Source: a virus (lineage: Duplodnaviria > Heunggongvirae > Uroviricota > Caudoviricetes). Taken from it: a DNA stretch of 64,000 nt. Below, in pieces: positions 953 through 27,008 of this stretch. Location: the IMG/VR virus record IMGVR_UViG_3300039155_000018, positions 1-64,000 of that record, one strand, 5' to 3'. Position numbers and translations under genes: made by a program. The notes under the pieces were generated by a model. The model was not told the DNA's origin and did not search any database. It saw nothing but the letters and a program-made list of their open reading frames with translations. Each line of letters starts with the position of its first letter. The stretch's first letter is position 1.

Positions 953-1179
953 TGGAACACACCCATGACAAGGTATCAATTCCTGCATCCTCCTACAAAT
1001 CACTGGTACAGGATGCCAAGCGCCTTCAATTTCTGATTGATGAACGGTGCGTAATCACCACAACACAGATTTGGGAGAAAGACCATTATCGCCTGGAATG
1101 GCCCTTTGATGGATATGTTCAACGGAGTTGGTATACTTCTGCCGAAGAAGCTATTGATGCACAAATGGAAGCCTCCTAG
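949..1179 (+). CDS. hypothetical protein
   Basis: A 76-aa ORF whose ATGA start overlaps the previous stop. Confidence 0.4.
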   Translation: MMEHTHDKVSIPASSYKSLVQDAKRLQFLIDERCVITTTQIWEKDHYRLEWPFDGYVQRSWYTSAEEAIDAQMEAS

Positions 1180-1275
1180 AACGCTCTACAAGACGTTTTA
1201 AGGGTGTGGGATATACGAGGGTGGCTCTTACATGAGAAAAGAGCTTATAACGCAATATAGGAGGTTTTAGAAACC

Positions 1276-1557
1276 ATGTTAAAGATTACGCTTGAAGGTG
1301 GTATTGAAGATATTGAAGGTCTTCTTGGGGATCAAGAAGATACTTATCCCGATATTGTTCTTATGGGCAAGCATTTCTCACTGATCTCTTGTGATATTCA
1401 TCGTTGGATTGGGGCAGGCGACATCAAGGTTGTATTTTTTGGTCTGCCAAACCTGAATCTTCAAGAAGAGGCAGTAGCAGAAGATGCTGTTCGTAAAGCA
1501 AAAGAAAGTCTTGAGGCTGCTGAAGCTACTCTGAAGAAGATTAAGGAGAAGAAGTGA
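1276..1557 (+). CDS. hypothetical protein
   Basis: A 93-aa ORF preceded by the translation-initiation region taggaggttttaga. The same string precedes the ORF at 2252. Confidence 0.5.
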   Translation: MLKITLEGGIEDIEGLLGDQEDTYPDIVLMGKHFSLISCDIHRWIGAGDIKVVFFGLPNLNLQEEAVAEDAVRKAKESLEAAEATLKKIKEKK

Positions 1558-2240
1558 GCCACGTAAAAGAGTATGATCTGAGGAATCACGCTGGTCGTAT
1601 TTTCTTCACTTCAGACATTCATGGGGACTTTGATCTACTGCACGAGAAAATGGCTGAGGTTTCATTTGATACACAGAATGACCTGCTCTTTGTGGGTGGG
1701 GATAATACAGATCGTGGTCCAAACTCTGCTTGGGTTCTAGATTATATTAATGAATCATGGTTTATCTCTGTAGCAGGCAACCACGAAGAAATGTTCCTGT
1801 CTGCTTACGAGTCGGGACTACAACTAGAAGGATATCCTTCTAGGATGTTGAGAGTAAATGGAGGCGAGTGGGTATTCCAAGAAACCAATGGACATCTTCT
1901 GGATGCTGTATATGAGAGTTTCTTGTGTCTCCCGCTAGCCATCGAGCTGATCCTTCCGAACAAACGTGTAGGGATTATTCATGCAGAAGTACCCTATGGG
2001 GATTGGGAGCTATTCAAAAGTTGTACTGGTGTAGAGCTTGAGATGAACGCGCAAGCTATTGTACAATGGGCTAGAACCAAGTATGATAGGAAGATTCAAA
2101 CAGCAGTGAAGAACATCGACGAAGTATATGTTGGGCACACACCGACAGATTCTCTCACTGTAGAAACTCTTGGTAATGTACATTACTGTGACTTGGGTTG
2201 TTTCTTTAGTGGTAATCTAGCATTTGTGGAAATAAAATAG
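1554..2240 (+). CDS. Ser/Thr protein phosphatase, PPP family (lambda phosphatase/ApaH-like metallophosphoesterase)
   Basis: It carries the motifs DIHGD, GDNTDRGPNS and GNHEEMF. These are the GDxHG / GDxxDRG / GNHE signature of PPP phosphatases. Its start overlaps the upstream ORF stop. Confidence 0.75.
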   Translation: MSHVKEYDLRNHAGRIFFTSDIHGDFDLLHEKMAEVSFDTQNDLLFVGGDNTDRGPNSAWVLDYINESWFISVAGNHEEMFLSAYESGLQLEGYPSRMLRVNGGEWVFQETNGHLLDAVYESFLCLPLAIELILPNKRVGIIHAEVPYGDWELFKSCTGVELEMNAQAIVQWARTKYDRKIQTAVKNIDEVYVGHTPTDSLTVETLGNVHYCDLGCFFSGNLAFVEIK

Positions 2241-2251
2241 GAGGTTTTAGA

Positions 2252-2554
2252 GTGACTATTAAAAAGTTCAAAGCTGTTGTGGCGGTAGAAAAAGAAATTG
2301 AGATTGAAATCAATACCGATGTAATCAATGAAAATTTCTTGAAAGAGTTCTCTGAAGGTATGTGGGAAGTCGATAATATTTCAGATATCGTAGAGCACAT
2401 TGCCTACTCCGTAGCAGTCGCAGATGGGTGTTTTATTGAAGGTGTGGGTAAGTATCCCAGTTATACAAAACGGGATGAAAATCTCTCTACTGTCGGAGTA
2501 CATGTTAAGTACAACGATTTTAACGACGGTATTGATGTTGTGGTGATTTATTAA
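2252..2554 (+). CDS. hypothetical protein
   Basis: A 100-aa ORF with a GTG start preceded by taggaggttttaga. Confidence 0.45.
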   Translation: MTIKKFKAVVAVEKEIEIEINTDVINENFLKEFSEGMWEVDNISDIVEHIAYSVAVADGCFIEGVGKYPSYTKRDENLSTVGVHVKYNDFNDGIDVVVIY

Positions 2555-2769
2555 TGAGCATTCTAATTTCAGTTTTTTGCATCTATCTTGCGATTGGTCT
2601 TGGTGTTGGTATTACATACCACACGCTGATGAACCATGTTGCTGAAACGTTTGAAGAAGACATTCCAGAGTTTAATATCAATCACGTCAAGTTTATTATT
2701 CACGTAATGGTTGCTTGGCCTTGGTTCATTCGAGACATTTCGGGAGATGAAGATGAGGAAGAGTGTTGA
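2554..2769 (+). CDS. small membrane protein
   Basis: A 71-aa ORF with an N-terminal hydrophobic helix (ILISVFCIYLAIGLGVGI) and an acidic tail. Confidence 0.4.
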   Translation: MSILISVFCIYLAIGLGVGITYHTLMNHVAETFEEDIPEFNINHVKFIIHVMVAWPWFIRDISGDEDEEEC

Positions 2770-2971
2770 GATTGATGTTGATCTCTTAGAGGATATCTTG
2801 AGTATTGCACGTCATGGAGCGTATGGGTCAGAATGGGATTGCATCCGACAGGCGGACACCTTACTTGAGGAGTTTGAAGAAAAGTCTCATCCAAGTAACC
2901 TTGACAACTTGTTTAACGGTCCCGGATATTTCTCTGGTAAGCCTGTTGACACAGAAGAAAATCTGGAGTAA
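2747..2971 (+). CDS. hypothetical protein
   Basis: An ORF in the 2711 frame. The likely start is the internal ATG preceded by GGAGATGAAG. Confidence 0.35.
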   Translation: MKMRKSVEIDVDLLEDILSIARHGAYGSEWDCIRQADTLLEEFEEKSHPSNLDNLFNGPGYFSGKPVDTEENLE

Positions 2972-3000
2972 TCTTTGAGCCACTAGAGCATTCAGTTCTG

Positions 3001-3669
3001 GTGGCTTTTGTTTATGGAGGAGAAAATGGAATGAACATGAATATCTTGATGATTGGGATGGGTTTTACCCTCACTGGATTGTCTTATCTACTTGCCACCG
3101 CGTTTGGGGTTCCTGTGGATTTGAATTGGTTGGAAATTATTGCTGTGGCAACTAGCTACTCTTGCACCATTCTGTTCATGCTACAGAAACGTGCTGCCTA
3201 TTTTTATGGCATTGTAAGCACTTTCTTCCTGTGCCTACTGTTCTTCACTCAAGGAATGATGGCACTATCTTTGTTTAATGGCATTTTGGTACTGTCTCTG
3301 GTTTACGGTTGGTTCCGGTGGGGGCCTGATGGTAAACCTCTCGCTGTGTCTTGGGTTAAAACTGAATGGAAAGCGTATGCCGGATACGTGCTCTTCTTTC
3401 TTGCTGTATGTGGACTATTCCGAATGATTGTAGGAGAGGGGTCAACACTCGATCTAACTTTAGCAGCAGGTAGTGCTACTGCTCAGCTAATGCTGGACAA
3501 CAAGCGTATTGAAAATTGGCTTGTATGGATTGTCATTAACGTGTTCTCGATTGGGTTTTTCTTGCAAGAAGGTTTGATTCTTCTGGCAATCCAGTTTATG
3601 ATGTTCCTTGTTAATGCAGTGGTGGCTCTCTACCGCTGGCACAAAGATTTGAAAAAGGAGGTTGTATGA
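3001..3669 (+). CDS. pnuC: polytopic membrane protein, PnuC-like nicotinamide riboside transporter candidate
   Basis: It is about 220 aa with several predicted TM helices and is W/N-rich near the C-terminus (NWLVWIVINVF). It is translationally coupled to the downstream NadR-like gene, the classic pnuC-nadR arrangement. Confidence 0.5.
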   Translation: MAFVYGGENGMNMNILMIGMGFTLTGLSYLLATAFGVPVDLNWLEIIAVATSYSCTILFMLQKRAAYFYGIVSTFFLCLLFFTQGMMALSLFNGILVLSLVYGWFRWGPDGKPLAVSWVKTEWKAYAGYVLFFLAVCGLFRMIVGEGSTLDLTLAAGSATAQLMLDNKRIENWLVWIVINVFSIGFFLQEGLILLAIQFMMFLVNAVVALYRWHKDLKKEVV

Positions 3670-19534: not shown

Positions 19535-19777
19535 TTATTTAGCTGTCAAGCAGTTTTTGCAAAGACAAGTAGAATCTTCTACAGGCTCTGGGAGCGGGAG
19601 GAAAGTAGCTGTTGAAGTTACCTCTCCCATGCACCAGCAAGCACTACCACTTTTCCCGTCAAGCATTGCGCAGTATGTACCTTTGTTGCATTCAGGGCAG
19701 GAGTGGGTTGTAGTGCGTTGCTGAATCTCCTTCAATAGCTGCATTCGAGCGTCACCAGTTGAGTTCACATGCACCAC
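19535..19777 (-). CDS. Cys-rich zinc-ribbon protein
   Basis: It carries CPECN...CWC...CLCKNC. It lies directly upstream of the RNR N-terminal ORF. Confidence 0.4.
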   Translation of the reverse strand: MVHVNSTGDARMQLLKEIQQRTTTHSCPECNKGTYCAMLDGKSGSACWCMGEVTSTATFLPLPEPVEDSTCLCKNCLTAK

Positions 19778-20993
19778 CTGAACAAGCTTGAGCGCCCATA
19801 CTATCGACTTCTACAAACTTCTTCTCTTGTAGCTCTACAGAAAAATCTACATTCTGCACAGTCCGTTCGATTGTCTTCCACTTGTGAAGGTTGAAGCAAT
19901 CCTTTAGGCAGTTTGTCATTTCAAGAACATCATTGTTAAAGTAATTGTTAGCGAACTTTTTAGCGCGTCGCACCCAATCACGTTTCAACAGGTCTTCCTT
20001 TGCTTCAGGATCAAGCTTCAAGCCCCAGCCGTTGACTGTATCACAAGCCACCCACAGATTGTTGTTAAAGGCGTGCAGGCCATCTACAATCAAACCAGAC
20101 GCAAACATGCTAGCTTCGCCGTATTTATCCATAATCTGTTGTGCCGTGAACACTTCAGTGAACGGGGCTTGTGGGTATGCCTTATCACCCATCGCACTTA
20201 GCAAAGAGATACCAGCAAACCACTTACGGTTGTCGTAGATGTATTGCTCCACCTCGTTCCAGTCATCAACTGTAATGGTATTGGATACATTGTGCCGAAG
20301 ATTCGGATCAACACACAGCTCCACGTTAGTGCCATGCTCCACCCAATACTGCTGAGCCAGCTTCACATACTCTAGTTGTTTAACCCCCATCAAATCCTTC
20401 TTATAGATGCTACCTTCCTTACTGACAATCGGGAAGCTAACAACTTTGTCGGTTCCGGTATTAGACCACACACTGTTTTCCACCATCTTAGGGTTCTTTT
20501 CTATCATAAGGTGGAGCACGTCGTCTTGGTCATTCATCTGCACGTTACGGAAGTACATCGGAGAATGTTCCCCATGAATACCAGATGCAGTTCCAAGCAG
20601 GGTTGATGCGTTGCCCGACGGCTTTACACAAGTTGTACGAGCTGCCTGATTAATACCAATCATCTTTGCAACAACCTTGTTCCACTCTTTAACTACTTCG
20701 GCGCCGTCAACCATATTCTGCTTATCGAACAACACTTCAGGGTTATTCATCCAGCCGGTAATGCTTACGCCAATTAGTGCTTCCCGTTCAATAATCTCCT
20801 TAGATGCAGCAGAAAGATATTTAAAGTCAGTGTATCCTGCTTGTAGAGTACCAATAATCGAAGCAGCTTTGCAATTCGCAAGAAACTCTTCTCGGCTGTT
20901 GCAAGCAGAGCCACTAATTTCGCACAGGTTACATGCTTGGAAACCACTTCGCCCATCTGCCGTTTTCGGCAGTTTGCCAATCTCTACACCCAT
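19752..20993 (-). CDS. ribonucleotide reductase catalytic subunit, C-terminal ORF (NrdA/NrdJ-like part b)
   Basis: It has ACNLCEI, the NxCxE active-site motif, and the C-terminal redox pair CSGGAC, which resembles the CxSGAC tail of NrdA. It has its own AGGAG RBS and ATG. Confidence 0.75.
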   Translation of the reverse strand: MGVEIGKLPKTADGRSGFQACNLCEISGSACNSREEFLANCKAASIIGTLQAGYTDFKYLSAASKEIIEREALIGVSITGWMNNPEVLFDKQNMVDGAEVVKEWNKVVAKMIGINQAARTTCVKPSGNASTLLGTASGIHGEHSPMYFRNVQMNDQDDVLHLMIEKNPKMVENSVWSNTGTDKVVSFPIVSKEGSIYKKDLMGVKQLEYVKLAQQYWVEHGTNVELCVDPNLRHNVSNTITVDDWNEVEQYIYDNRKWFAGISLLSAMGDKAYPQAPFTEVFTAQQIMDKYGEASMFASGLIVDGLHAFNNNLWVACDTVNGWGLKLDPEAKEDLLKRDWVRRAKKFANNYFNNDVLEMTNCLKDCFNLHKWKTIERTVQNVDFSVELQEKKFVEVDSMGAQACSGGACELNW

Positions 20994-21084
20994 CTTGTTA
21001 CTCCTAATCTCTTAGGGGCTTAATCATTTCTGTTAAGCTCACATATTTTCACATGTGTGCGGACTATATCACCACCCTAGTCTC

Positions 21085-21765
21085 TTAGGGGCTAACCGTA
21101 CGGAAACTCTCATGGATTTTATATTGGAAGCTAGGTAACACATGCGGAGCAACCATTTCCATAAACTTGTAAAAATCCTTCATTCGAAGGCGCAGATAGT
21201 AATACTGATTCTGCCTATTAATGTTGAACTCAAGGTCAAGCTTTTCTTTCAAAGCTTTCTTCAGGATAAACAAATCCCCATAAGAAAGTCGTTTCATATT
21301 CAAGGTAACATTGTAGCTCCCGTTAACCAACCCCCTTTTAGGGTCAGGTTTAGTTGTCACAAAAGAGCCGTCGCACATGTAGAGGATTGCCAACGCCTCT
21401 GCGTCCAGCATCTTCAAAGCGTGCGGGTCAATCCCTTTATACTTTTCCGTATAAATTCGCCCATGAAGCGTAGTCAAAAGCGGGTGACGCTTACTCTCCA
21501 GCCGCAATTGAGGCTTACGGTCACACCCGTCAACATTGTAATCCTTCCTTTCAGAAACCCTACACCCAGTGATTTGCTCAAGAACATTTTTGCAGAAGAG
21601 AATATAATCCTCGTTATCTCTTTTCATGTTCATGGCAAAGAAGGCATTAGTCCCCTCTGTACGGTTCGGTGGAAAGTACAACCCACCGTCACCCATAACA
21701 ATGTAGCTGAGCAGTTTTACAAGTTCTTTCTTATTCACAGTTTCCATAGTCTCTACACTTCCCAT
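21085..21765 (-). CDS. LAGLIDADG-family homing endonuclease inserted in the RNR gene
   Basis: A single LLSYIVMGDGGLYF LAGLIDADG-type motif lies near the N-terminus. The 226-aa gene sits between the two RNR ORFs on the same strand. Confidence 0.55.
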   Translation of the reverse strand: MGSVETMETVNKKELVKLLSYIVMGDGGLYFPPNRTEGTNAFFAMNMKRDNEDYILFCKNVLEQITGCRVSERKDYNVDGCDRKPQLRLESKRHPLLTTLHGRIYTEKYKGIDPHALKMLDAEALAILYMCDGSFVTTKPDPKRGLVNGSYNVTLNMKRLSYGDLFILKKALKEKLDLEFNINRQNQYYYLRLRMKDFYKFMEMVAPHVLPSFQYKIHESFRTVSP

Positions 21766-21868
21766 ATCGGGTTAGCACGGGATTGTCTTCGCCTTTGAGC
21801 GGTCAGAGTTTCCCCGTTTTTAGGTTAGTTATTCAAAGCAGATCACTCTGCTAGGCCGCTAGTAGTTC

Positions 21869-22870
21869 TTAGTGAACAGTCAACGGATTGTAGGTAAATT
21901 CAAGATTCTCAGTAAAGATAAAAGCAGGCTCCCCGTAGTCACGTACAGACTTCATAATGTTTGCCCACTCTTCACGAGTAATTTCGTCGCGCAATAGCAT
22001 TACACTATTGTTACTTCGGCCTCTGGAGGGGTTGGTGATAAACCAATCTCCAGTTTTAGCCTTCAGCATCTCGTCGTCATCTTTAGAGAAGAGACAAATT
22101 GTTGCGCTCCTGCGAACACCGCCCGAAAGAACAGCGTCTGCCATAAACATTACAAAGTCATAAGCTGTAATCGGCTTCATTGCTACGGACTCTTTACTCT
22201 CTGCAATCTGCGCATCCAACAACTGCTCACACTTCTGTAAAGCAATCCGCAGACCGTCTGGACCCGGAGCTTTAAATCCTCCGCTAATCTCTGCACCTTT
22301 GGGGCGAATCTTGCTGAAGTCGAAGTGAACCTTACAACCCTTGTACTCTGGGAATGTACCACCATCCTCAAAGTAGCTACTGAGCAGCACACCAAAAGAA
22401 TCAGCCCAGCCTTCAATACTGTCTGGGATGGTGTAGACCTTGCTCTTTTTATCGAAACGTTTCTGAATTTTAGGAAGCTTTGCTACGTGGTGCTTTTGCA
22501 CGCTGAAGCCGACTCCACATCCACACAACAGCAAATACATCGACTCCTGAAACGCTGCTGCTCGGTCAATGTGAGTTGACACGCAGTTGTAGAGCCGGGC
22601 GTTGTGCTTGAAGAGTTGTTCACCGCCAAACTGCAAAGCTCGTTGAGCGCCTAGAACACTTTTCTTCTTATAAGCATTTTCTGCAAACTGAATAAGTTCT
22701 CCTAGTTCTGTAGTCATTACATCTTTATATTTGATGCGGTGCATATTCATTACACGTTCTACAGATTCTTCCCAAGTCTCGTAACGACCCTCGCCATCCA
22801 GCCACCGGGAGTAACCCATGTAGAATTTGGATTGGGCCATCATTTCTTTACCAACACCGCTGTTAATCAA
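21869..22870 (-). CDS. ribonucleotide reductase catalytic subunit, N-terminal ORF (part a)
   Basis: It carries LSGGVRRSATICLF, resembling the GGVRGGAATLFYP region of class I/II RNR alpha, and an upstream LLCGCGVGFSV candidate for the first active-site Cys. It ends at an in-frame stop about 100 nt before the endonuclease gene. Confidence 0.65.
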   Translation of the reverse strand: MINSGVGKEMMAQSKFYMGYSRWLDGEGRYETWEESVERVMNMHRIKYKDVMTTELGELIQFAENAYKKKSVLGAQRALQFGGEQLFKHNARLYNCVSTHIDRAAAFQESMYLLLCGCGVGFSVQKHHVAKLPKIQKRFDKKSKVYTIPDSIEGWADSFGVLLSSYFEDGGTFPEYKGCKVHFDFSKIRPKGAEISGGFKAPGPDGLRIALQKCEQLLDAQIAESKESVAMKPITAYDFVMFMADAVLSGGVRRSATICLFSKDDDEMLKAKTGDWFITNPSRGRSNNSVMLLRDEITREEWANIMKSVRDYGEPAFIFTENLEFTYNPLTVH

Positions 22871-22891: not shown

Positions 22892-23287
22892 TTACTTAGA
22901 GTAATTTTCAGAATCATACTTATCAAATGCCTTATCAGCACCTGACTGACGCCCCATAACCTTAAGGTCTGACCTTAGACCAGCATCACAGCTCTCTACA
23001 ATAGCGTTCCAGCTAGCGACACCACACCGTAGCCACTCCTTATCCCCACGCTCTGTAGCGAAAATACATGGACCATTAAATCGTAGAGGATTATCACTAT
23101 CCGGGTAAACTCGATGCTCACAACTGATAACTTCGTAAGGAAGCTCAATATCTACACCAGCTTGCCAAAGAATATTTTTAAACTCTTGCTGGTTGTCTTC
23201 TTCTACAGCTTTCTTAAATGGTTCGTATCGCATCAGGACATGAAAACTACGTTGAATTGGCACCATCTTAATTACTCCAACCTTCAT
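22892..23287 (-). CDS. hypothetical protein
   Basis: A 131-aa ORF. Confidence 0.4.
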   Translation of the reverse strand: MKVGVIKMVPIQRSFHVLMRYEPFKKAVEEDNQQEFKNILWQAGVDIELPYEVISCEHRVYPDSDNPLRFNGPCIFATERGDKEWLRCGVASWNAIVESCDAGLRSDLKVMGRQSGADKAFDKYDSENYSK

Positions 23288-23513
23288 ATTCTTTTAGAGC
23301 ACAGTTACCAACAAGGCTCTTCACTAGCTCATCATTCTCAAAGAACAGTGCAGTAGGGAGTCCACGTACACGATAGTTTCGGCAATACTCCATATTCTCA
23401 TCTAGTTCAGCATCCACTTCTCGGTACTTAATGCCGTTGTCATCTAGCTTACGCTTTAGTGGACCACAGTTACTGCAATTCTTAGATGAAACAATTACCA
23501 ATTCTTTACTCAT
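23268..23513 (-). CDS. nrdH: glutaredoxin/NrdH-like redoxin
   Basis: An 81-aa protein with the CSNC (CxxC) motif near the N-terminus. It sits in the RNR neighbourhood. Confidence 0.6.
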   Translation of the reverse strand: MSKELVIVSSKNCSNCGPLKRKLDDNGIKYREVDAELDENMEYCRNYRVRGLPTALFFENDELVKSLVGNCALKEYEGWSN

Positions 23514-23525
23514 ATCTTCTTCTCC

Positions 23526-23807
23526 TTACTTCTTAAAATAAAAATCTACAAGGGTGTTGAATGCCTTCCACACCTCTTTCTCTTGCTCTGTGGCTTCTCG
23601 TAGAACATAAGAGTGCTCTGTGTAATCAGGGAATACATCAGCACACCACACACTTCCTTGAAGCTCTACAAAATCTCCATCGTGGGGAAAGAGAGATTCT
23701 AGCCACTCCATCTTCATCTTCACAATCTGATATTTATTAGGTTCTGCCATTAGTATTCTCCGATTACTTAGGAATGTATTCACTAAGATCGACCGAAGGA
23801 TGTCCAA
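23526..23807 (-). CDS. hypothetical protein
   Basis: A 93-aa ORF. Confidence 0.4.
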   Translation of the reverse strand: MDILRSILVNTFLSNRRILMAEPNKYQIVKMKMEWLESLFPHDGDFVELQGSVWCADVFPDYTEHSYVLREATEQEKEVWKAFNTLVDFYFKK

Positions 23808-24249
23808 TCCGCTTCATGATCTTACCGGCAGAGTTTACCACAACGTAGAAAGGAACTCCATGATGGTAGTTGGTATTGATGAAATATTCCTTATCGTCTC
23901 GTTCTTCCAATGCTTCCTTCACTTCTACAGCTTCTGCATGACTGCTGTAAATCTTGAGGAAATTGTTGTCGTTCACTGCTTGCATAGCACCTTCAAAATC
24001 GAAGCCTGCAACTTCAAGGCGATGAATCCCCTCCATCAGAACAACGAACACATCACAGAATTCTTTAAGCAGGTGGTTATAATCTCCCTCATGTGATGCT
24101 TCTTCCACTTCAAGACCTTCTTCTTTAATGAGAGCAGCCTGAGAGATGATGCTCCGATCAAAGTCTAGGGTGTAGGCAGGGTGTAGGACGTTCCCTGCTT
24201 TACGATTGAACTCAATTACTTGCTTTGCTTGTTGAATCAGGTGTTTCAT
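23764..24249 (-). CDS. MazG-like nucleotide pyrophosphohydrolase candidate
   Basis: It is all-helical and acidic. An EEGLEVEEASHEGD ... KEFCD pattern resembles the EExxE...ExxD metal site of MazG/HisE. Confidence 0.3.
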   Translation of the reverse strand: MKHLIQQAKQVIEFNRKAGNVLHPAYTLDFDRSIISQAALIKEEGLEVEEASHEGDYNHLLKEFCDVFVVLMEGIHRLEVAGFDFEGAMQAVNDNNFLKIYSSHAEAVEVKEALEERDDKEYFINTNYHHGVPFYVVVNSAGKIMKRIGHPSVDLSEYIPK

Positions 24250-24257
24250 GTTTCTCC

Positions 24258-25181
24258 TTAGTCTAGATGCTTTACAAATTCTTCACGTACAGTTTTGGTT
24301 ACTTCATTCTGTAATGATTTACTCCACAGCTTGTAGTTTTCTTCTACAACCTTCTTTACATCTGTACTTGTCTCTTTCTGGAAATCCTCAAGAATATCTT
24401 GAATTGTTAGACCAAGAACCTTCGGGAAATCTTTATTGGTGATTTGACCAATCTTACTAATCACATTACTTACTCGTTGGGGAGAATTATACTCCAGAAT
24501 ATTATCAAGTAAAGCTTGTTCTACTTCACTCAGACCAACGGCAGGTTTATGTTCTTTCTTGTTCTTCTTTTCCGTAAATGCTTCCGTTTTGTTCTTGAAG
24601 TATACGCGACTACCATTCTTAAACCAAGCAGGAATTACTGGTTCAATCACCACACCTTCTGCGAAGTTTTCACCTTCAAAACCCTTTTGGGTCAGGAGCG
24701 ATTGGAATTTGTTCTCTGCATCCATACATCCCTTGAAGAAACCTATGTAGAGAATGGGAGTGAAAGGAATGCCTATTTCGTAGGCAAGCCGAGCAGAATC
24801 AACTTTATTTAGGATAACACCATCAACTACGAATTCAAAAGCTGCGAAGTCTTTCTCGCCGTATACAACCTCTTTCTGAATACCTTGCCCATGCAGCTCA
24901 CCGTAAATCACAATCATGAAACAAGGGTTATTATTGTACCAATCCTTAATCTTCTGCTCATACTTGTTAATCACAGATTGACAATTGTAGAAAGTCCCCT
25001 CTACGAATTGACTACGAGATGCAACCTTAAAATCTTTCCCATCGTACCAAAAGCTGAAGTTTGCACCATGAATCTTCTCGGTGACGATCCACAACTGCTC
25101 ATCTAGACCTTCCAGCAACACCTTATCAATCAGGTTTTGACGGTAAGTGTTTTCAAGGCTTGTGAATTTCTTAAATTCCAT
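24258..25181 (-). CDS. rnl2: RNA ligase 2 (T4 Rnl2-like)
   Basis: It carries FKKFTSLEN, VTEKIHGANFSF (nucleotidyltransferase motif I KxHG), GELHGQGIQK and YGEKDF. These are near-colinear with T4 Rnl2. The start was taken at the second ATG (MEFKKF). Confidence 0.8.
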   Translation of the reverse strand: MEFKKFTSLENTYRQNLIDKVLLEGLDEQLWIVTEKIHGANFSFWYDGKDFKVASRSQFVEGTFYNCQSVINKYEQKIKDWYNNNPCFMIVIYGELHGQGIQKEVVYGEKDFAAFEFVVDGVILNKVDSARLAYEIGIPFTPILYIGFFKGCMDAENKFQSLLTQKGFEGENFAEGVVIEPVIPAWFKNGSRVYFKNKTEAFTEKKNKKEHKPAVGLSEVEQALLDNILEYNSPQRVSNVISKIGQITNKDFPKVLGLTIQDILEDFQKETSTDVKKVVEENYKLWSKSLQNEVTKTVREEFVKHLD

Positions 25182-25638
25182 CTTTGTTCCTCCTATACAA
25201 TACAATTTCAAATTCTTTATTGCTCACAATCTTAACCCCGTTCTCAGGAACAATCCATGGGTAATCTTCGATTGGGAAGAACACATCTGCTTTCCGCTCG
25301 GGAAGATTGAAGAAGTGTGTGACGTAGATCAAATCCACATGCTCCGCAAGTAGTTTATACGTCTTAGCCCCGCCAATCACCACCTTATCATCCATCCATC
25401 CCCAGCAGACACCTGCTTGGGAGTATGTTTCAAGAGTATCAATATCTTCTCGGTGCAAGACAATCAGTTCGCGGTTGGTCATCTTAGGCAGTGTCTGTGC
25501 TGTACGATACCCAACGATTAACTCCTTCTCTTGGGTAAATCCAGAGAAGAACCAAAGGTCCCGCATGTCCTTGTACAGCAACTCGTCCCCACAACCAATT
25601 CCCCAATCAGGACTCACTGCTACGATTGCTGTTAACAT
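25171..25638 (-). CDS. frd: dihydrofolate reductase
   Basis: It has AIVAVSPDWGIG and VIGGAKTY. The 155-aa size and its position next to thymidylate synthase fit, as in T4 frd-td. Confidence 0.7.
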   Translation of the reverse strand: MLTAIVAVSPDWGIGCGDELLYKDMRDLWFFSGFTQEKELIVGYRTAQTLPKMTNRELIVLHREDIDTLETYSQAGVCWGWMDDKVVIGGAKTYKLLAEHVDLIYVTHFFNLPERKADVFFPIEDYPWIVPENGVKIVSNKEFEIVLYRRNKDGI

Positions 25639-25795
25639 TCAACTCCTCCCGAAGATTTACAAGTTGTGAAATGATATTCTCCAGCTCGGTGACTGGGAAG
25701 GTTATGTAAGCAGTGCCAAAATCCTTCCCATCCTTGATGCACACGTCCTTGAAGGTATTGACAAATACTTCAATCAAAGAACCCCCTGTATTTTA

Positions 25796-26704
25796 TCAAA
25801 TAGCCATACTAGGCTTAGGTGTTCTAAACGGAGTCTTATTGATCTCCAAATCTGTGACAAGGATATCCTCCCACTGAAGTGAAAGCAAGTCCCCCAGAGA
25901 AGAAATTTCCTTGTTAATCAGCACCTTACCATGCTCACCAAATTCGCGTTGTACAGTTTCTTGAGCATATTCTAGCTGGTTATTATACAAGTGAACGTGG
26001 GAGAGGTCTGCACTGAGCGTGCCCATTTCAAACCCGAACATCTTACACAACGCAAGCTGGAACAAACGGTATTGTTGCACAGCAAACGGGAAACCAAAGA
26101 GAACATCCAAAGAACGATTAATCAGCTTCACGTGAAGAACATCTTTCCCCTCTTTATTCGGGAGGACGACATATTCACTTGCCCACCAGCATGGAGTTAG
26201 AGGCATCAAGTCTTCCTCTGATGGGTTCCACAGGCTCACCACCATTCGACGAGAATAGCGGTCAGAACCCAAGGTATCAATCAGTTTTAGAAGTTGATCC
26301 ACGCCTTGGCGAGCGTAGGTGTAGTAGCCACCAAAATCTCGCCACTGTTCACTGTATGCTCTACCAAGATCACCCTCCGGTAGATGGCAAAGGTCCCGGC
26401 TATCCAGAAACTCACGGCTCGTATTACCAGCCCAGAAGTAAATCCCCTTATCTTCCAGAGTCTTAGTATCAGTCTCTCCTTTCAGGAACATCCACATTTC
26501 TTCGAAGCTGAAGCGTGGAGGACAAGAACGAAGAGATGAGAGGGCAAAATCGGTTTCTCCGTCTCCCAGCTTATCATACACCACTTTAGCATCGAAGATA
26601 GCTCGACAACCAATACCTGTACGGTCTGGGATTTCAACTCCATTCTCTAGAACATCCTTGAGAAGCTGGACATAGCCAGATTCCCCATAGTAAACCTTAC
26701 TCAC
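25796..26704 (-). CDS. td: thymidylate synthase
   Basis: It carries DRTGIG, FEEMWMFLKGETDTKTLE and LTPCW, and the C-terminus KPSMAI resembles ThyA KAPVAI. The start was set at GTG 26704 with GGGAGGG upstream, because the N-terminal extension in the track looks like junk. Confidence 0.8.
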   Translation of the reverse strand: MSKVYYGESGYVQLLKDVLENGVEIPDRTGIGCRAIFDAKVVYDKLGDGETDFALSSLRSCPPRFSFEEMWMFLKGETDTKTLEDKGIYFWAGNTSREFLDSRDLCHLPEGDLGRAYSEQWRDFGGYYTYARQGVDQLLKLIDTLGSDRYSRRMVVSLWNPSEEDLMPLTPCWWASEYVVLPNKEGKDVLHVKLINRSLDVLFGFPFAVQQYRLFQLALCKMFGFEMGTLSADLSHVHLYNNQLEYAQETVQREFGEHGKVLINKEISSLGDLLSLQWEDILVTDLEINKTPFRTPKPSMAI

Positions 26705-27008
26705 CGGAGATACCCTCCCGTTCAAAGAACTCGTCAAGAGAGATAAAATCCACCACAGAACTAACAGTAGGATCAACTAGCACCTCGATTGAGTGGTATC
26801 CGTCACCATCATCCGACAGGTGAACTTCCCAGCCAGCAGTACCTATCATCCACCGATCCTTCTTAATCACTTTCTTAATGACTCGGTAGATATCAGCTTC
26901 ACATTCAGCAACAGAGCCGTAAGGTTTATACTTGTTATTCGCAAGAATGAACTTAGCTGCTGCTCGTACACTACCTGTCTGAATCGAAACCTTGGAAAGA
27001 TCAATCAC
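26697..27008 (-). CDS. hypothetical protein
   Basis: A 103-aa ORF. Confidence 0.4.
   Translation of the reverse strand: MIDLSKVSIQTGSVRAAAKFILANNKYKPYGSVAECEADIYRVIKKVIKKDRWMIGTAGWEVHLSDDGDGYHSIEVLVDPTVSSVVDFISLDEFFEREGISGE

Follow-up and report, generated by a model that had tools for sequence, protein, structure and literature searches.

A phage class II ribonucleotide reductase gene split at its radical-cysteine codon by a predicted group I intron that encodes a LAGLIDADG homing endonuclease

The interrupted reductase gene

We analyzed a 64,000-nucleotide (nt) stretch of DNA from a Caudoviricetes virus, comprising positions 1 to 64,000 of the IMG/VR record IMGVR_UViG_3300039155_000018 (hereafter ‘the window’), in which a ribonucleotide reductase (RNR) gene is divided by an intervening sequence that carries an endonuclease gene. 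The minus strand holds three consecutive open reading frames (ORFs) at this locus: 21869..22870 (333 amino acids (aa), the N-terminal half of RNR), 21085..21765 (226 aa) and 19752..20993 (413 aa, the C-terminal half of RNR). These coordinates are exactly those given by a first-pass annotation of the window, which had offered two explanations, namely a group I intron encoding a homing endonuclease or a gene split into two polypeptides that must assemble. As described below, the first of these is favored by the junction, the U.G pair, the terminal G, the covariation and the introns at the same codon, and the second is disfavored by the split Cys330 codon and by start signals that are not conserved. 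The parts of the gene are as follows.

21883..22870, minus strand, exon 1 of the class II RTPR-like RNR gene (from the ORF and uninterrupted homologues)
20990..21882, minus strand, predicted group I intron of 893 nt, with the 5' splice site after U21883 and G20990 as the last nucleotide (omega G)
21085..21765, minus strand, 226-aa ORF for a two-motif, I-SceI-like LAGLIDADG homing endonuclease (Pfam PF03161)
19752..20989, minus strand, exon 2, which starts with GT (completing the Cys330 codon) and encodes VEIGK, CNL and a C-terminal CSGGAC

The flanking ORFs were confirmed as RNR halves. The N-terminal half matched the Pfam families RNR-II_ins_dom and RNR_Alpha, and the joined protein matched the Lactobacillus leichmannii RTPR (PDB 1L1L) with E=6.8e-27 in a single-sequence search, in which it was the sole relative of solved structure, and with E=1.3e-75 in a profile search. 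The middle ORF proved to be of the LAGLIDADG type, as had been supposed: it scored 85.1 bits with PF03161 (LAGLIDADG_2), for which the cut-off is 25 (E=6.9e-24), and its residues 23-201 cover positions 8-168 of the 168 in the profile. Its translation contains the two LAGLIDADG motifs LLSYIVMGDGG (residues 18-28) and LAILYMCDGS (residues 125-134), each with an acidic residue.

Exon 1 starts with TTG, 6 nt after AAGGAG, and its final base, T21883, is the first base of the Cys330 codon; tblastn of the spliced protein placed aa 1-329 at 22870..21884. Excising 21882..20990 (893 nt) joins ..AATCCGT to GTGTAGAG.., and the resulting junction, ..TACAATCCGT (ending at 21883) followed by GTGTAGAGATT.. 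(starting at 20989), gives an open frame of 2226 nt that encodes 741 aa. The predicted ligated-exon sequence is ..TACAATCCGTGTGTAGAGATT.., the intron-less form of the site, taken from the spliced window sequence, is TTACCTACAATCCGTGTGTAGAGATTGGCAAA, and the protein across the junction reads ..EFTYNPCVEIGKLP.., with TYNPCVEIGK. In other words, the TGT codon of Cys330 is divided as T|GT by the intervening sequence.

This position was fixed by alignment with uninterrupted homologues, a step that the first-pass annotation had proposed for locating the insertion site. A large protein collection returned thousands of RNR homologues, and the best 120 of them were examined (72-89% identity); 119 are approximately 725-772 aa long, and one is 1050 aa long with an in-frame insertion. 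In 120 of these 120 best homologues, NPC[VA]E occurs at the junction point and the sequence is uninterrupted there. The uninterrupted homologue in Rhizobium phage RHph_I1_18 (57% identity) likewise reads ..EHTYNPCVEIGKFP.., encoding HTYNPCVEIGK. We also found an intron-less near relative, L247, with 89% protein identity and a similar gene neighborhood, in which the DNA site is intact (AATCCAT-GTGTAGAGATCGG; allele ACCTTTAATCCATGTGTAGAGATCGGTAAA). The unspliced products of the window gene would read ..YNPLTVH(stop) and MGVEIGK.., and Cys330 is in neither of them.

Next, we considered the class of the enzyme. In an alignment with distant phage RTPR-like proteins (33-41% identity; alignment A4), residues N328, P329, C330, E332, I333, Q347, C349, N350 and L351 are invariant, as are C96, C732 and C737, and the loop between the two active-site cysteines is 9 residues longer in the subfamily of the window protein. 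The profile search on 1L1L aligned NPCvEI with TNPCGEI, CNL with the C419 region and the C-terminal CSGGACE with CEGGACP. As the TNPC cysteine of 1L1L is the thiyl-radical Cys408 in the established RTPR numbering, Cys330 is the predicted thiyl-radical cysteine of the window enzyme. A single-sequence phmmer alignment that placed a downstream ‘FQAC’ on C408 was discarded, as both the multiple alignment and the profile search put NPC on C408. The first-pass annotation had named NLCEI as an active-site element; this proved to be the region of the second redox cysteine (C349-N-L, corresponding to RTPR C419), and the catalytic residue is instead assigned to C330 in NPC-V-E.

The class II catalytic set is complete in alignment A4 and in the 1L1L profile alignment, with N-x-C-x-E, the redox cysteine pair and the C-terminal C-x4-C tail. 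The enzyme shares with 1L1L the N-P-C-x-E and C-N-L motifs, the N-terminal cysteine, the C-terminal C-x4-C tail and GGVRRSA, and is of nearly the same length (741 versus 739 aa). It differs from 1L1L in the longer loop noted above and in falling under the RTPR equivalog cut-off: the NCBIfam family TIGR02505 (RTPR equivalog) was its best family (E=1.4e-53), but with 182.1 bits, under the cut-off of 340. Because of this score, the window protein is a diverged phage-borne relative of RTPR rather than an equivalog. Together, the motifs and family matches support the interpretation that the region is one gene for a monomeric-type, adenosylcobalamin-dependent class II RTPR-like RNR. A B12-dependent class II enzyme had been one of the possibilities raised initially, and it agrees with the 1L1L matches, the best family and the aligned catalytic residues. 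As had also been reported, no nrdB-like gene was seen among the neighboring genes scanned, which is consistent with class II, because a class II enzyme requires no nrdB.

Two side observations concern the homologues. The 1050-aa homologue, P0090, is 75% identical to the window RNR and has its in-frame insertion of approximately 310 aa upstream of the NPC motif; the insertion gave a weak match to LAGLIDADG_3 (21.3 bits, just under the cut-off of 22.5) and is most likely an intein. If so, this enzyme family may have had inteins as well as introns as invaders. The insertion in the window itself is not an intein, since it has stops in the RNR frame. We also noticed that proteins of Vibrio phage VPs20 (L241, OP056089.1, 544..2439) and Oceanospirillum phage PD0307 that are labeled ‘recombinase’ are approximately 40% identical to the window RNR over 82% of its length and keep all of the invariant RNR residues, so that the label is likely a mis-annotation.

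Structure of the intervening RNA

The intervening sequence contains recognizable P, Q, R and S elements, which were identified by eye: AAAAACGGGGAAAC and CAAUCCCGUGC (P4), GUAGAGACUA (R, the 5' strand of P7) and GAUAUAGUCC (S, the 3' strand of P7). We assembled the structural elements below from these, from a minimum-energy fold and from a hand-made structural alignment of 10 introns (alignment A3), in which NNNN stands in for the ORF interior and N for gaps. Alignment A3 replaced a plain MAFFT alignment, in which the ORF-less copy of the intron from Pseudaeromonas phage vB_PpeM_KLEP7 (described in the next section) was misaligned.

21881..21886, minus strand, P1 5' strand CCGU|UG, the last four exon and first two intron nucleotides, with U21883 in the U.G wobble at the splice site
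21869..21871, minus strand, in-frame UAA in the P1 loop, four codons into the intron, which would halt ribosomes reading on from exon 1
21856..21861, minus strand, P1 3' strand, the internal guide sequence UAGCGG (alignment A3)
21837..21852, minus strand, P2 hairpin AGCAGA-GUGA-UCUGCU with a GNRA loop; compensatory changes in 8 of 8 aligned pairs; in the minimum-energy fold
21823..21828, minus strand, P3 5' strand CUAACC, pairing with 21092..21097 across the ORF
21777..21817, minus strand, P4-P5-P4' domain, ACGGGG ... UCU/AGA with an inner CGC/GCG stem ... UCCCGU (alignment A3 and fold)
21761..21771, minus strand, P6 hairpin CCC-GAUAU-GGG, with the first in-frame ATG of the ORF (21765) in its loop
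21747..21751, minus strand, P7 5' strand GACUA, in the R element GUAGAGACUA; the second ATG (21747) begins at the final A of this strand
21739..21745, minus strand, P7.1-type stem, 5' strand GGAAACU, beginning with the G of the ATG at 21747 and pairing with 21102..21108
21102..21108, minus strand, P7.1-type stem, 3' strand AGUUUCC, closing the ORF loop of approximately 630 nt
21092..21097, minus strand, P3 3' strand GGUUAG (alignment A3)
21075..21090, minus strand, P8 hairpin CCCUA-AGAGAC-UAGGG, holding the ORF stop codon and one copy of the direct repeat
21062..21066, minus strand, P7 3' strand UAGUC, in the S element GAUAUAGUCC (alignment A3 and Rfam 3' core)
21040..21057, minus strand, P9 hairpin (alignment A3 and fold)
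21018..21038, minus strand, P9.1 hairpin with the conserved loop CAGAAAUGA (alignment A3 and fold)
21003..21016, minus strand, P9.2 hairpin, the second copy of the direct repeat, with a 3' strand that supplies ‘AGGAG’

The first-pass annotation had suggested folding the junction regions for group I elements. Minimum-energy folding of all 909 nt (z = -3.6) recovered P1, P2, P4, P8, P9, P9.1 and P9.2; P3 and P7, which are pseudoknotted, and P6 and P7.1 were not recovered. All helices from P1 to P9.2 were identified on alignment A3, and the order of the core is canonical (P3-P4-P5-P6-P7-P3'-P8-P7'). A second R-like motif, CUAAGAGACUAGGG (at about 21090), was tried as P7 and rejected: with P7 there, P8 would have no space, and it is the upstream GUAGAGACUA that aligns with the R elements throughout the relatives.

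Covariation in alignment A3 was extensive. Standard pairs occurred in 99.3% of 596 cells, and double changes in 61 of 76 pairs. The covariation score was 0.634, compared with 0.157 +/- 0.016 for shuffled alignments, none of 500 shuffles reaching the observed value; when the 3' partners were moved by 1-3 columns as a control, pairing fell to 34-43%. In view of both controls and of how many different pair types occur, a chance origin of the pairing is very unlikely. Compensatory changes were found in P1, P2, P3, P4, P5, P6, P7.1, P8, P9, P9.1 and P9.2 (not in P7), with 4-6 pairs each in P3, P4, P5, P6 and P8. P3, for example, appears as CUAAUC/GAUUAG, CUACA/UGUAG, CUAAAC/GUUUAG and CCAAGC/GCUUGG in the relatives.

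All 10 introns have the splice-site U.G pair, and their guide sequences track the exon (CCGU/GCGG, GCAU/GUGC, GCGU/GCGC and GGGU/GCCC). Candidates for P10 also covary: CUAC, just 5' of the guide (21865..21862), with exon 2 GUAG in the window, CAAC/GUUG in the close relative L237, and a 10-bp match in L190, all three read directly from the sequences. A further in-frame stop (GCC UAG) follows P1.

The assignment of the intervening sequence to group I introns is strongly supported: its removal restores the conserved junction exactly, the 5' splice site has the U.G pair, the last nucleotide is G, helices P1-P9.2 covary, and homologous introns lie at the same codon. A group II intron was set aside because the group I core elements are present.

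The stretch before exon 2 carries AGGAG 8 nt ahead of an in-frame ATG (20993), with a TAA seven codons upstream of that ATG, and exon 1 runs into an in-frame stop (TAA, 21871..21869); all of these had been described correctly at the outset. The ATG lies within the conserved tail AGUAACAAnAUGG, which ends in the omega G. Two direct repeats of 16 nt had likewise been described as flanking the junction region. They are real, although 18 nt long (21003-21020 and 21076-21093, 17 of 18 nt identical) and at slightly different coordinates from those given, and they correspond to the P9.2 and P8 hairpins. Because the two copies form these hairpins and are not repeated in L237, in which P8 and P9.2 show no such resemblance, we do not regard the repeat as an insertion scar; it is peculiar to the window copy and may have arisen by duplication or conversion of a short segment inside the intron.

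The 9-nt loop of P9.1 is exactly CAGAAAUGA in four of the eight introns that have P9.1, with a near match in three more, and the stem beneath it covaries freely. This suggests that the loop may be a tertiary contact or a protein-binding site.

Related introns and the placement of the endonuclease gene

We searched a viral contig collection with two short motifs and sorted the hits by local BLAST. Nine related introns were recovered, with or without an endonuclease gene, and six of the nine interrupt the same Cys codon. L237, L157 and L227 carry a homologous endonuclease gene (54-73% identity) in an intron at this codon of RTPR-like genes, the ORFs of L237 and L157 (69-73% identity) being intact. 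L190 (1580..2378) and L230 (1308..2108) carry a 41-43% identical LAGLIDADG gene in a related intron at the same T|GT Cys codon, and their host gene encodes a distant, approximately 560-aa NrdJ-type class II reductase (..RNA-C-TEFTS..CNLGSINL..). The relatives without an ORF are KLEP7 (230 nt, same codon), L206, L143 and L163. All seven of the introns with ends fixed by exon homology follow U, end in G and restore N-[PA]-C-x-E. As a side observation, the lineage appears to follow the active-site codon across diverged RNR genes. Profiles of the intron family (nhmmer) matched the window only at this place, so that intron and endonuclease are present there in a single copy, and the exact endonuclease sequence was found in no record of the contig collection.

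Pseudaeromonas phage vB_PpeM_KLEP7 (L001, OM654377.1) has the RNR closest to that of the window among cultured phages (approximately 62% aa identity). Its 230-nt intron (1146..1375) has the same T|GT position, the same guide sequence and P2, P4, P8, P9.1 and P9.2 in register; it differs in its length and in having neither an ORF nor a P7.1 stem. GenBank lists two separate reductase coding sequences there, gp198 and gp197 (‘ribonucleoside triphosphate reductase’), with gp197 annotated as starting at an ATG that falls in the loop of P9.1. These two are presumably a single gene.

Endonucleases with 47-48% identity were also found in the Pseudomonas phages HHBS10_2, FBPa8 and SPA01, within the same RNA architecture (..AACGACUAUG-ORF-..CGUACGGUUAGCCCC..GGUGAGAUAGUC). 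In HHBS10_2 and FBPa8 the interrupted gene is nrdB, for the class I small subunit, and in SPA01 it is a hypothetical gene. The unit lies at approximately 1917..2672 in HHBS10_2 (L245, PQ287653.1) and 1870..2720 in SPA01 (L246), and none of these units is annotated as an intron.

Comparison of the introns with and without an ORF located the endonuclease gene in the RNA. In the ORF-less relatives, CCAA joins P7 (GACUA) to P3', and in the six ORF-bearing introns UG comes immediately after GACUA (GACUAUG). The next seven nucleotides pair with seven near the end of the ORF, as GGAAACU/AGUUUCC in the window, GAAAACA/UGUUUUC in L237, GAAAAUU/AAUUUUC in L157, GAUUAAA/UUUAAUC in L230 and GACUAAA/UUUAGUC in L190, with P3' and P8 coming next. 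Compensatory changes occur in five of the seven pairs, and every cell of the six introns is paired. This puts the ORF in the loop of a P7.1-type stem that is built of its own first and last codons, and its 3' end runs through the 3' strand of P7.1 and P3' into P8. Two in-frame ATGs are present in all six ORF-bearing introns; the window has them at 21765, within the loop of P6, and at 21747, where P7 ends (220 aa), and the latter is slightly favored as the functional start because of the purines upstream of it.

Other relatives extend this picture. The ‘group C’ introns, a sister group without ORFs from IMG/VR contigs (L023, L036, L037, L042, L045, L062 and L082), have a P1 guide and a P2 (UAGCGGCCUAACAGAGAAAUCUGUUUUGAAUAAC) nearly as in the window, and their insertion point follows ..GACCCGT in another gene (junction ..DP-C-WKL..). 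Hairpins P7.1 and P7.2 between P7 and P3' are among the features that define subgroup IA2, the phage type; the group C introns have two hairpins there, P7.1 and P7.2, where the window intron has one covarying stem and its ORF-less relatives have none. In L227, the same RNR gene has a second interruption of approximately 1.17 kb (2092..3264) after about residue 290, with a 296-aa ORF (2361..3251) that matched nothing in Pfam. The interruption may be a further intron whose endonuclease goes unrecognized. L143 has its ORF-less intron at approximately 1464..1676, after ..GAPVGSG in an apparent P-loop protein gene. Its 3' boundary is tentative, with no homologue as an anchor, and the spliced frame would end six codons on, just before a strong terminator-like hairpin.

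Proposed mechanism, alternatives and context

What was observed is the ORFs and the families of their products, the precise junction, covariation in the helices and homologous introns at the same codon. On this ground, we consider it very probable that this phage class II RNR gene is interrupted at its radical-cysteine codon by a mobile group I intron that encodes a LAGLIDADG homing endonuclease. The self-splicing, endonuclease activity, cleavage site and competition between translation and folding described next are predictions from this interpretation. The pre-mRNA would fold into a group I ribozyme with P1-P10, the P7.1-type stem, P9.1 and P9.2. An external guanosine would attack after U21883, at the U.G wobble with the internal guide sequence, and exon 1 would next attack after the terminal G20990, so that the ligated mRNA would encode the 741-aa enzyme with the split codon U|GU restored to Cys330. 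The stop four codons into the intron probably bars ribosomes from the ribozyme, by analogy with the T4 introns, for which a stop codon that protects folding has been discussed (reference B108 in PMC3984707). As the endonuclease gene starts in P6/P7/P7.1 and ends in P3'/P8, its translation and the folding of the core should exclude each other, which agrees with a 2014 review on ORFs that overlap core sequences (PMC3984707). The endonuclease would be expected to cut intron-less alleles of co-infecting relatives near ..AATCCxT^GTGTAGAGAT.., and repair of the cut allele would copy the intron in (homing). The occurrence of ORF-intron units at the same codon in diverged RNR genes is consistent with homing, as is the intron-less close relative L247.

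Several points weigh against this interpretation. Splicing itself is read here from DNA and not from RNA. The AGGAG and in-frame ATG ahead of exon 2 could yield a C-terminal fragment from unspliced RNA. The match to the Rfam group I model RF00028 reached 17.9 bits (E=0.088) over the 3' core only, short of the gathering score of 50; the whole window gave no Rfam match at the gathering threshold, nor did the ORF-less KLEP7 intron match in Rfam. Alignment A3 was fitted by hand to the structure, with N for gaps and the ORF interior cut, which biases its pairing percentages towards the model. P7 (GACUA/UAGUC) is invariant in 10 of 10 introns and so, while consistent with the model, carries no covariation information, and the P7.1 stem as defined is absent from the minimum-energy fold, which has an overlapping AUGGA/UCCAU pairing instead. 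The 630-nt ORF within the core accounts for part of the weak Rfam score, and since the KLEP7 intron also fails in Rfam, RF00028 seems to cover this lineage poorly.

We also considered three alternatives. It is conceivable, though improbable, that the intron is a real group I intron that is not autonomous, folding only with help from its LAGLIDADG protein as a maturase or from a host chaperone. Known LAGLIDADG maturases include one from a bacterium, Thermotoga (PMC3984707). In the window, approximately 630 nt are looped out, the ORF lies unusually near the catalytic core, between P7 and P3', and the ORF-less relatives have only CCAA at this position, all of which could fit a need for assistance. 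However, the covarying 7-bp stem that closes the ORF loop should hold P7 and P3' together without a protein. In addition, self-splicing in vitro is the general rule for those phage group I introns that have been studied.

The second alternative, that the intron or endonuclease is dead and the RNR gene is a pseudogene or is being lost, seems to us highly improbable. Many intron-borne endonuclease genes are degenerate, and the 18-nt repeat specific to the window could reflect a local rearrangement. However, both exons are intact, 57-89% identical to full-length homologues throughout and with all invariant residues kept; every core helix is intact in the window copy; the endonuclease ORF has its full length and keeps the acidic residues of both its motifs; and the intact ORFs of L237 and L157 fit purifying selection or recent mobility.

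The least probable alternative, to which we give almost no weight, is that there is no splicing and that the two ORFs are translated separately and their products assemble, in the style of Aeromonas phage Aeh1 NrdA/mobE: a functional split RNR of that type has been described (PMC3045599; PMC7344957), and the stop at the end of exon 1 and the AGGAG and ATG before exon 2, an arrangement of the ATG shared by L237, would suit it, but the T|GT split leaves the invariant thiyl-radical Cys330 out of both products, the ATG and ribosome-binding site are missing in L157, L227 and KLEP7, which have the insertion at the same site, and a non-splicing insertion would have no reason to keep a full covarying group I core including P1 and P10. 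Since the catalytic Cys codon itself is split, RNA splicing would be required for activity.

Group I introns in phage RNR genes are classical, having been reported for T4 nrdB and nrdD, Twort nrdE, SPbeta and the B. cereus group (PMC3653736, PMC2248736, PMC3984707). The window intron resembles those of T4 td, nrdB and nrdD (sunY), Twort nrdE, SPbeta bnrdE and bnrdF and B. cereus-group nrdE and nrdF in placing a group I ribozyme at a highly conserved, functionally critical codon of a nucleotide-metabolism or RNR gene. It also shares with them the homing endonuclease ORF that overlaps core elements, the in-frame stop soon after the 5' splice site, the P7.1-type stem, P9.1 and P9.2. It differs in that its ORF lies between P7 and P3', whereas the T4 intron ORFs are in P6a or P9.1. 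A further difference is that the host gene is class II RTPR-like and not class I or III; a 2013 survey of phage RNRs lists only two split nrdJ genes, neither described as split by an intron (PMC3653736). The endonuclease differs too, being of the LAGLIDADG type, whereas phage introns most often carry GIY-YIG, HNH, PD-(D/E)xK or EDxHD enzymes (2014 review, PMC3984707).

The nrdA-a/mobE/nrdA-b arrangement of Aeh1 is similar in that an RNR large-subunit gene is present as two ORFs with an endonuclease gene between them; it has no intron and its polypeptides assemble, whereas the window has a complete group I core and a split catalytic Cys codon. The endonuclease itself resembles I-SceI and LAGLIDADG_2 proteins in its full-length profile match, its two motifs, each with a conserved Asp, and its length of approximately 220 aa. 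Its pairwise match to the solved I-SceI structure in the PDB was only marginal (E of about 0.3), and it differs further in having a phage, and not a fungal mitochondrion, as host and a protein-coding gene as target. We found no description in the literature of this intron lineage, or of such an intron at this site and gene type, although incomplete coverage makes this weak evidence of absence. This kind of selfish element is well known, and its insertion site and host gene type were not found described before.

If the interpretation is correct, ORFs listed as separate reductase fragments, as in KLEP7, would be one functional gene, and the correction would extend to several phage and metagenome records. 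The selfish element would sit on the most constrained codon of an essential enzyme, that of the thiyl-radical cysteine, a position that would make its homing site durable. The intron would add class II RNR and LAGLIDADG to the pairings of phage introns and endonucleases, in which, according to reviews, GIY-YIG and HNH enzymes in class I and III genes dominate. The intron family, with and without the ORF and at the same and different sites, is a natural series for how an endonuclease gene can be accommodated beside a ribozyme core, and the endonuclease may be a new rare-cutting enzyme with a defined target.

Only tentatively, and doubting that every part of it will hold, we propose the following combination: that this is a widespread, undescribed phage intron lineage with an I-SceI-like gene in a P7.1-type loop by the core; that it occupies the radical-Cys codon of at least two deeply diverged class II RNRs (741 aa RTPR-like and approximately 560 aa NrdJ-like), as well as nrdB and other Pseudomonas phage genes; and that the start codon in P7/P7.1, by making endonuclease translation and ribozyme folding mutually exclusive, is a built-in switch between mobility and host-gene expression. 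In this picture, the endonuclease might double as a maturase.

Finally, we examined the surroundings of the gene. A megablast search of the region and 25 kb of the window against 50,697 phage records gave no match, and by this comparison the phage appears to be one without a close cultured relative. There are no tRNA genes in the window. The RNR gene lies within a minus-strand cluster of nucleotide-metabolism genes, the upstream part of which spans 23268..26776, as listed here with the gene downstream of RNR.

25796..26776, minus strand, upstream of the RNR gene, thymidylate synthase with an N-terminal extension of approximately 30 aa
25171..25638, minus strand, upstream, DHFR
24258..25211, minus strand, upstream, Rnl2-type RNA ligase
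23764..24249, minus strand, upstream, MazG-like pyrophosphatase
23268..23513, minus strand, upstream, small thioredoxin/glutaredoxin-like protein
19535..19777, downstream of the RNR gene, Cys-rich CWC-domain protein

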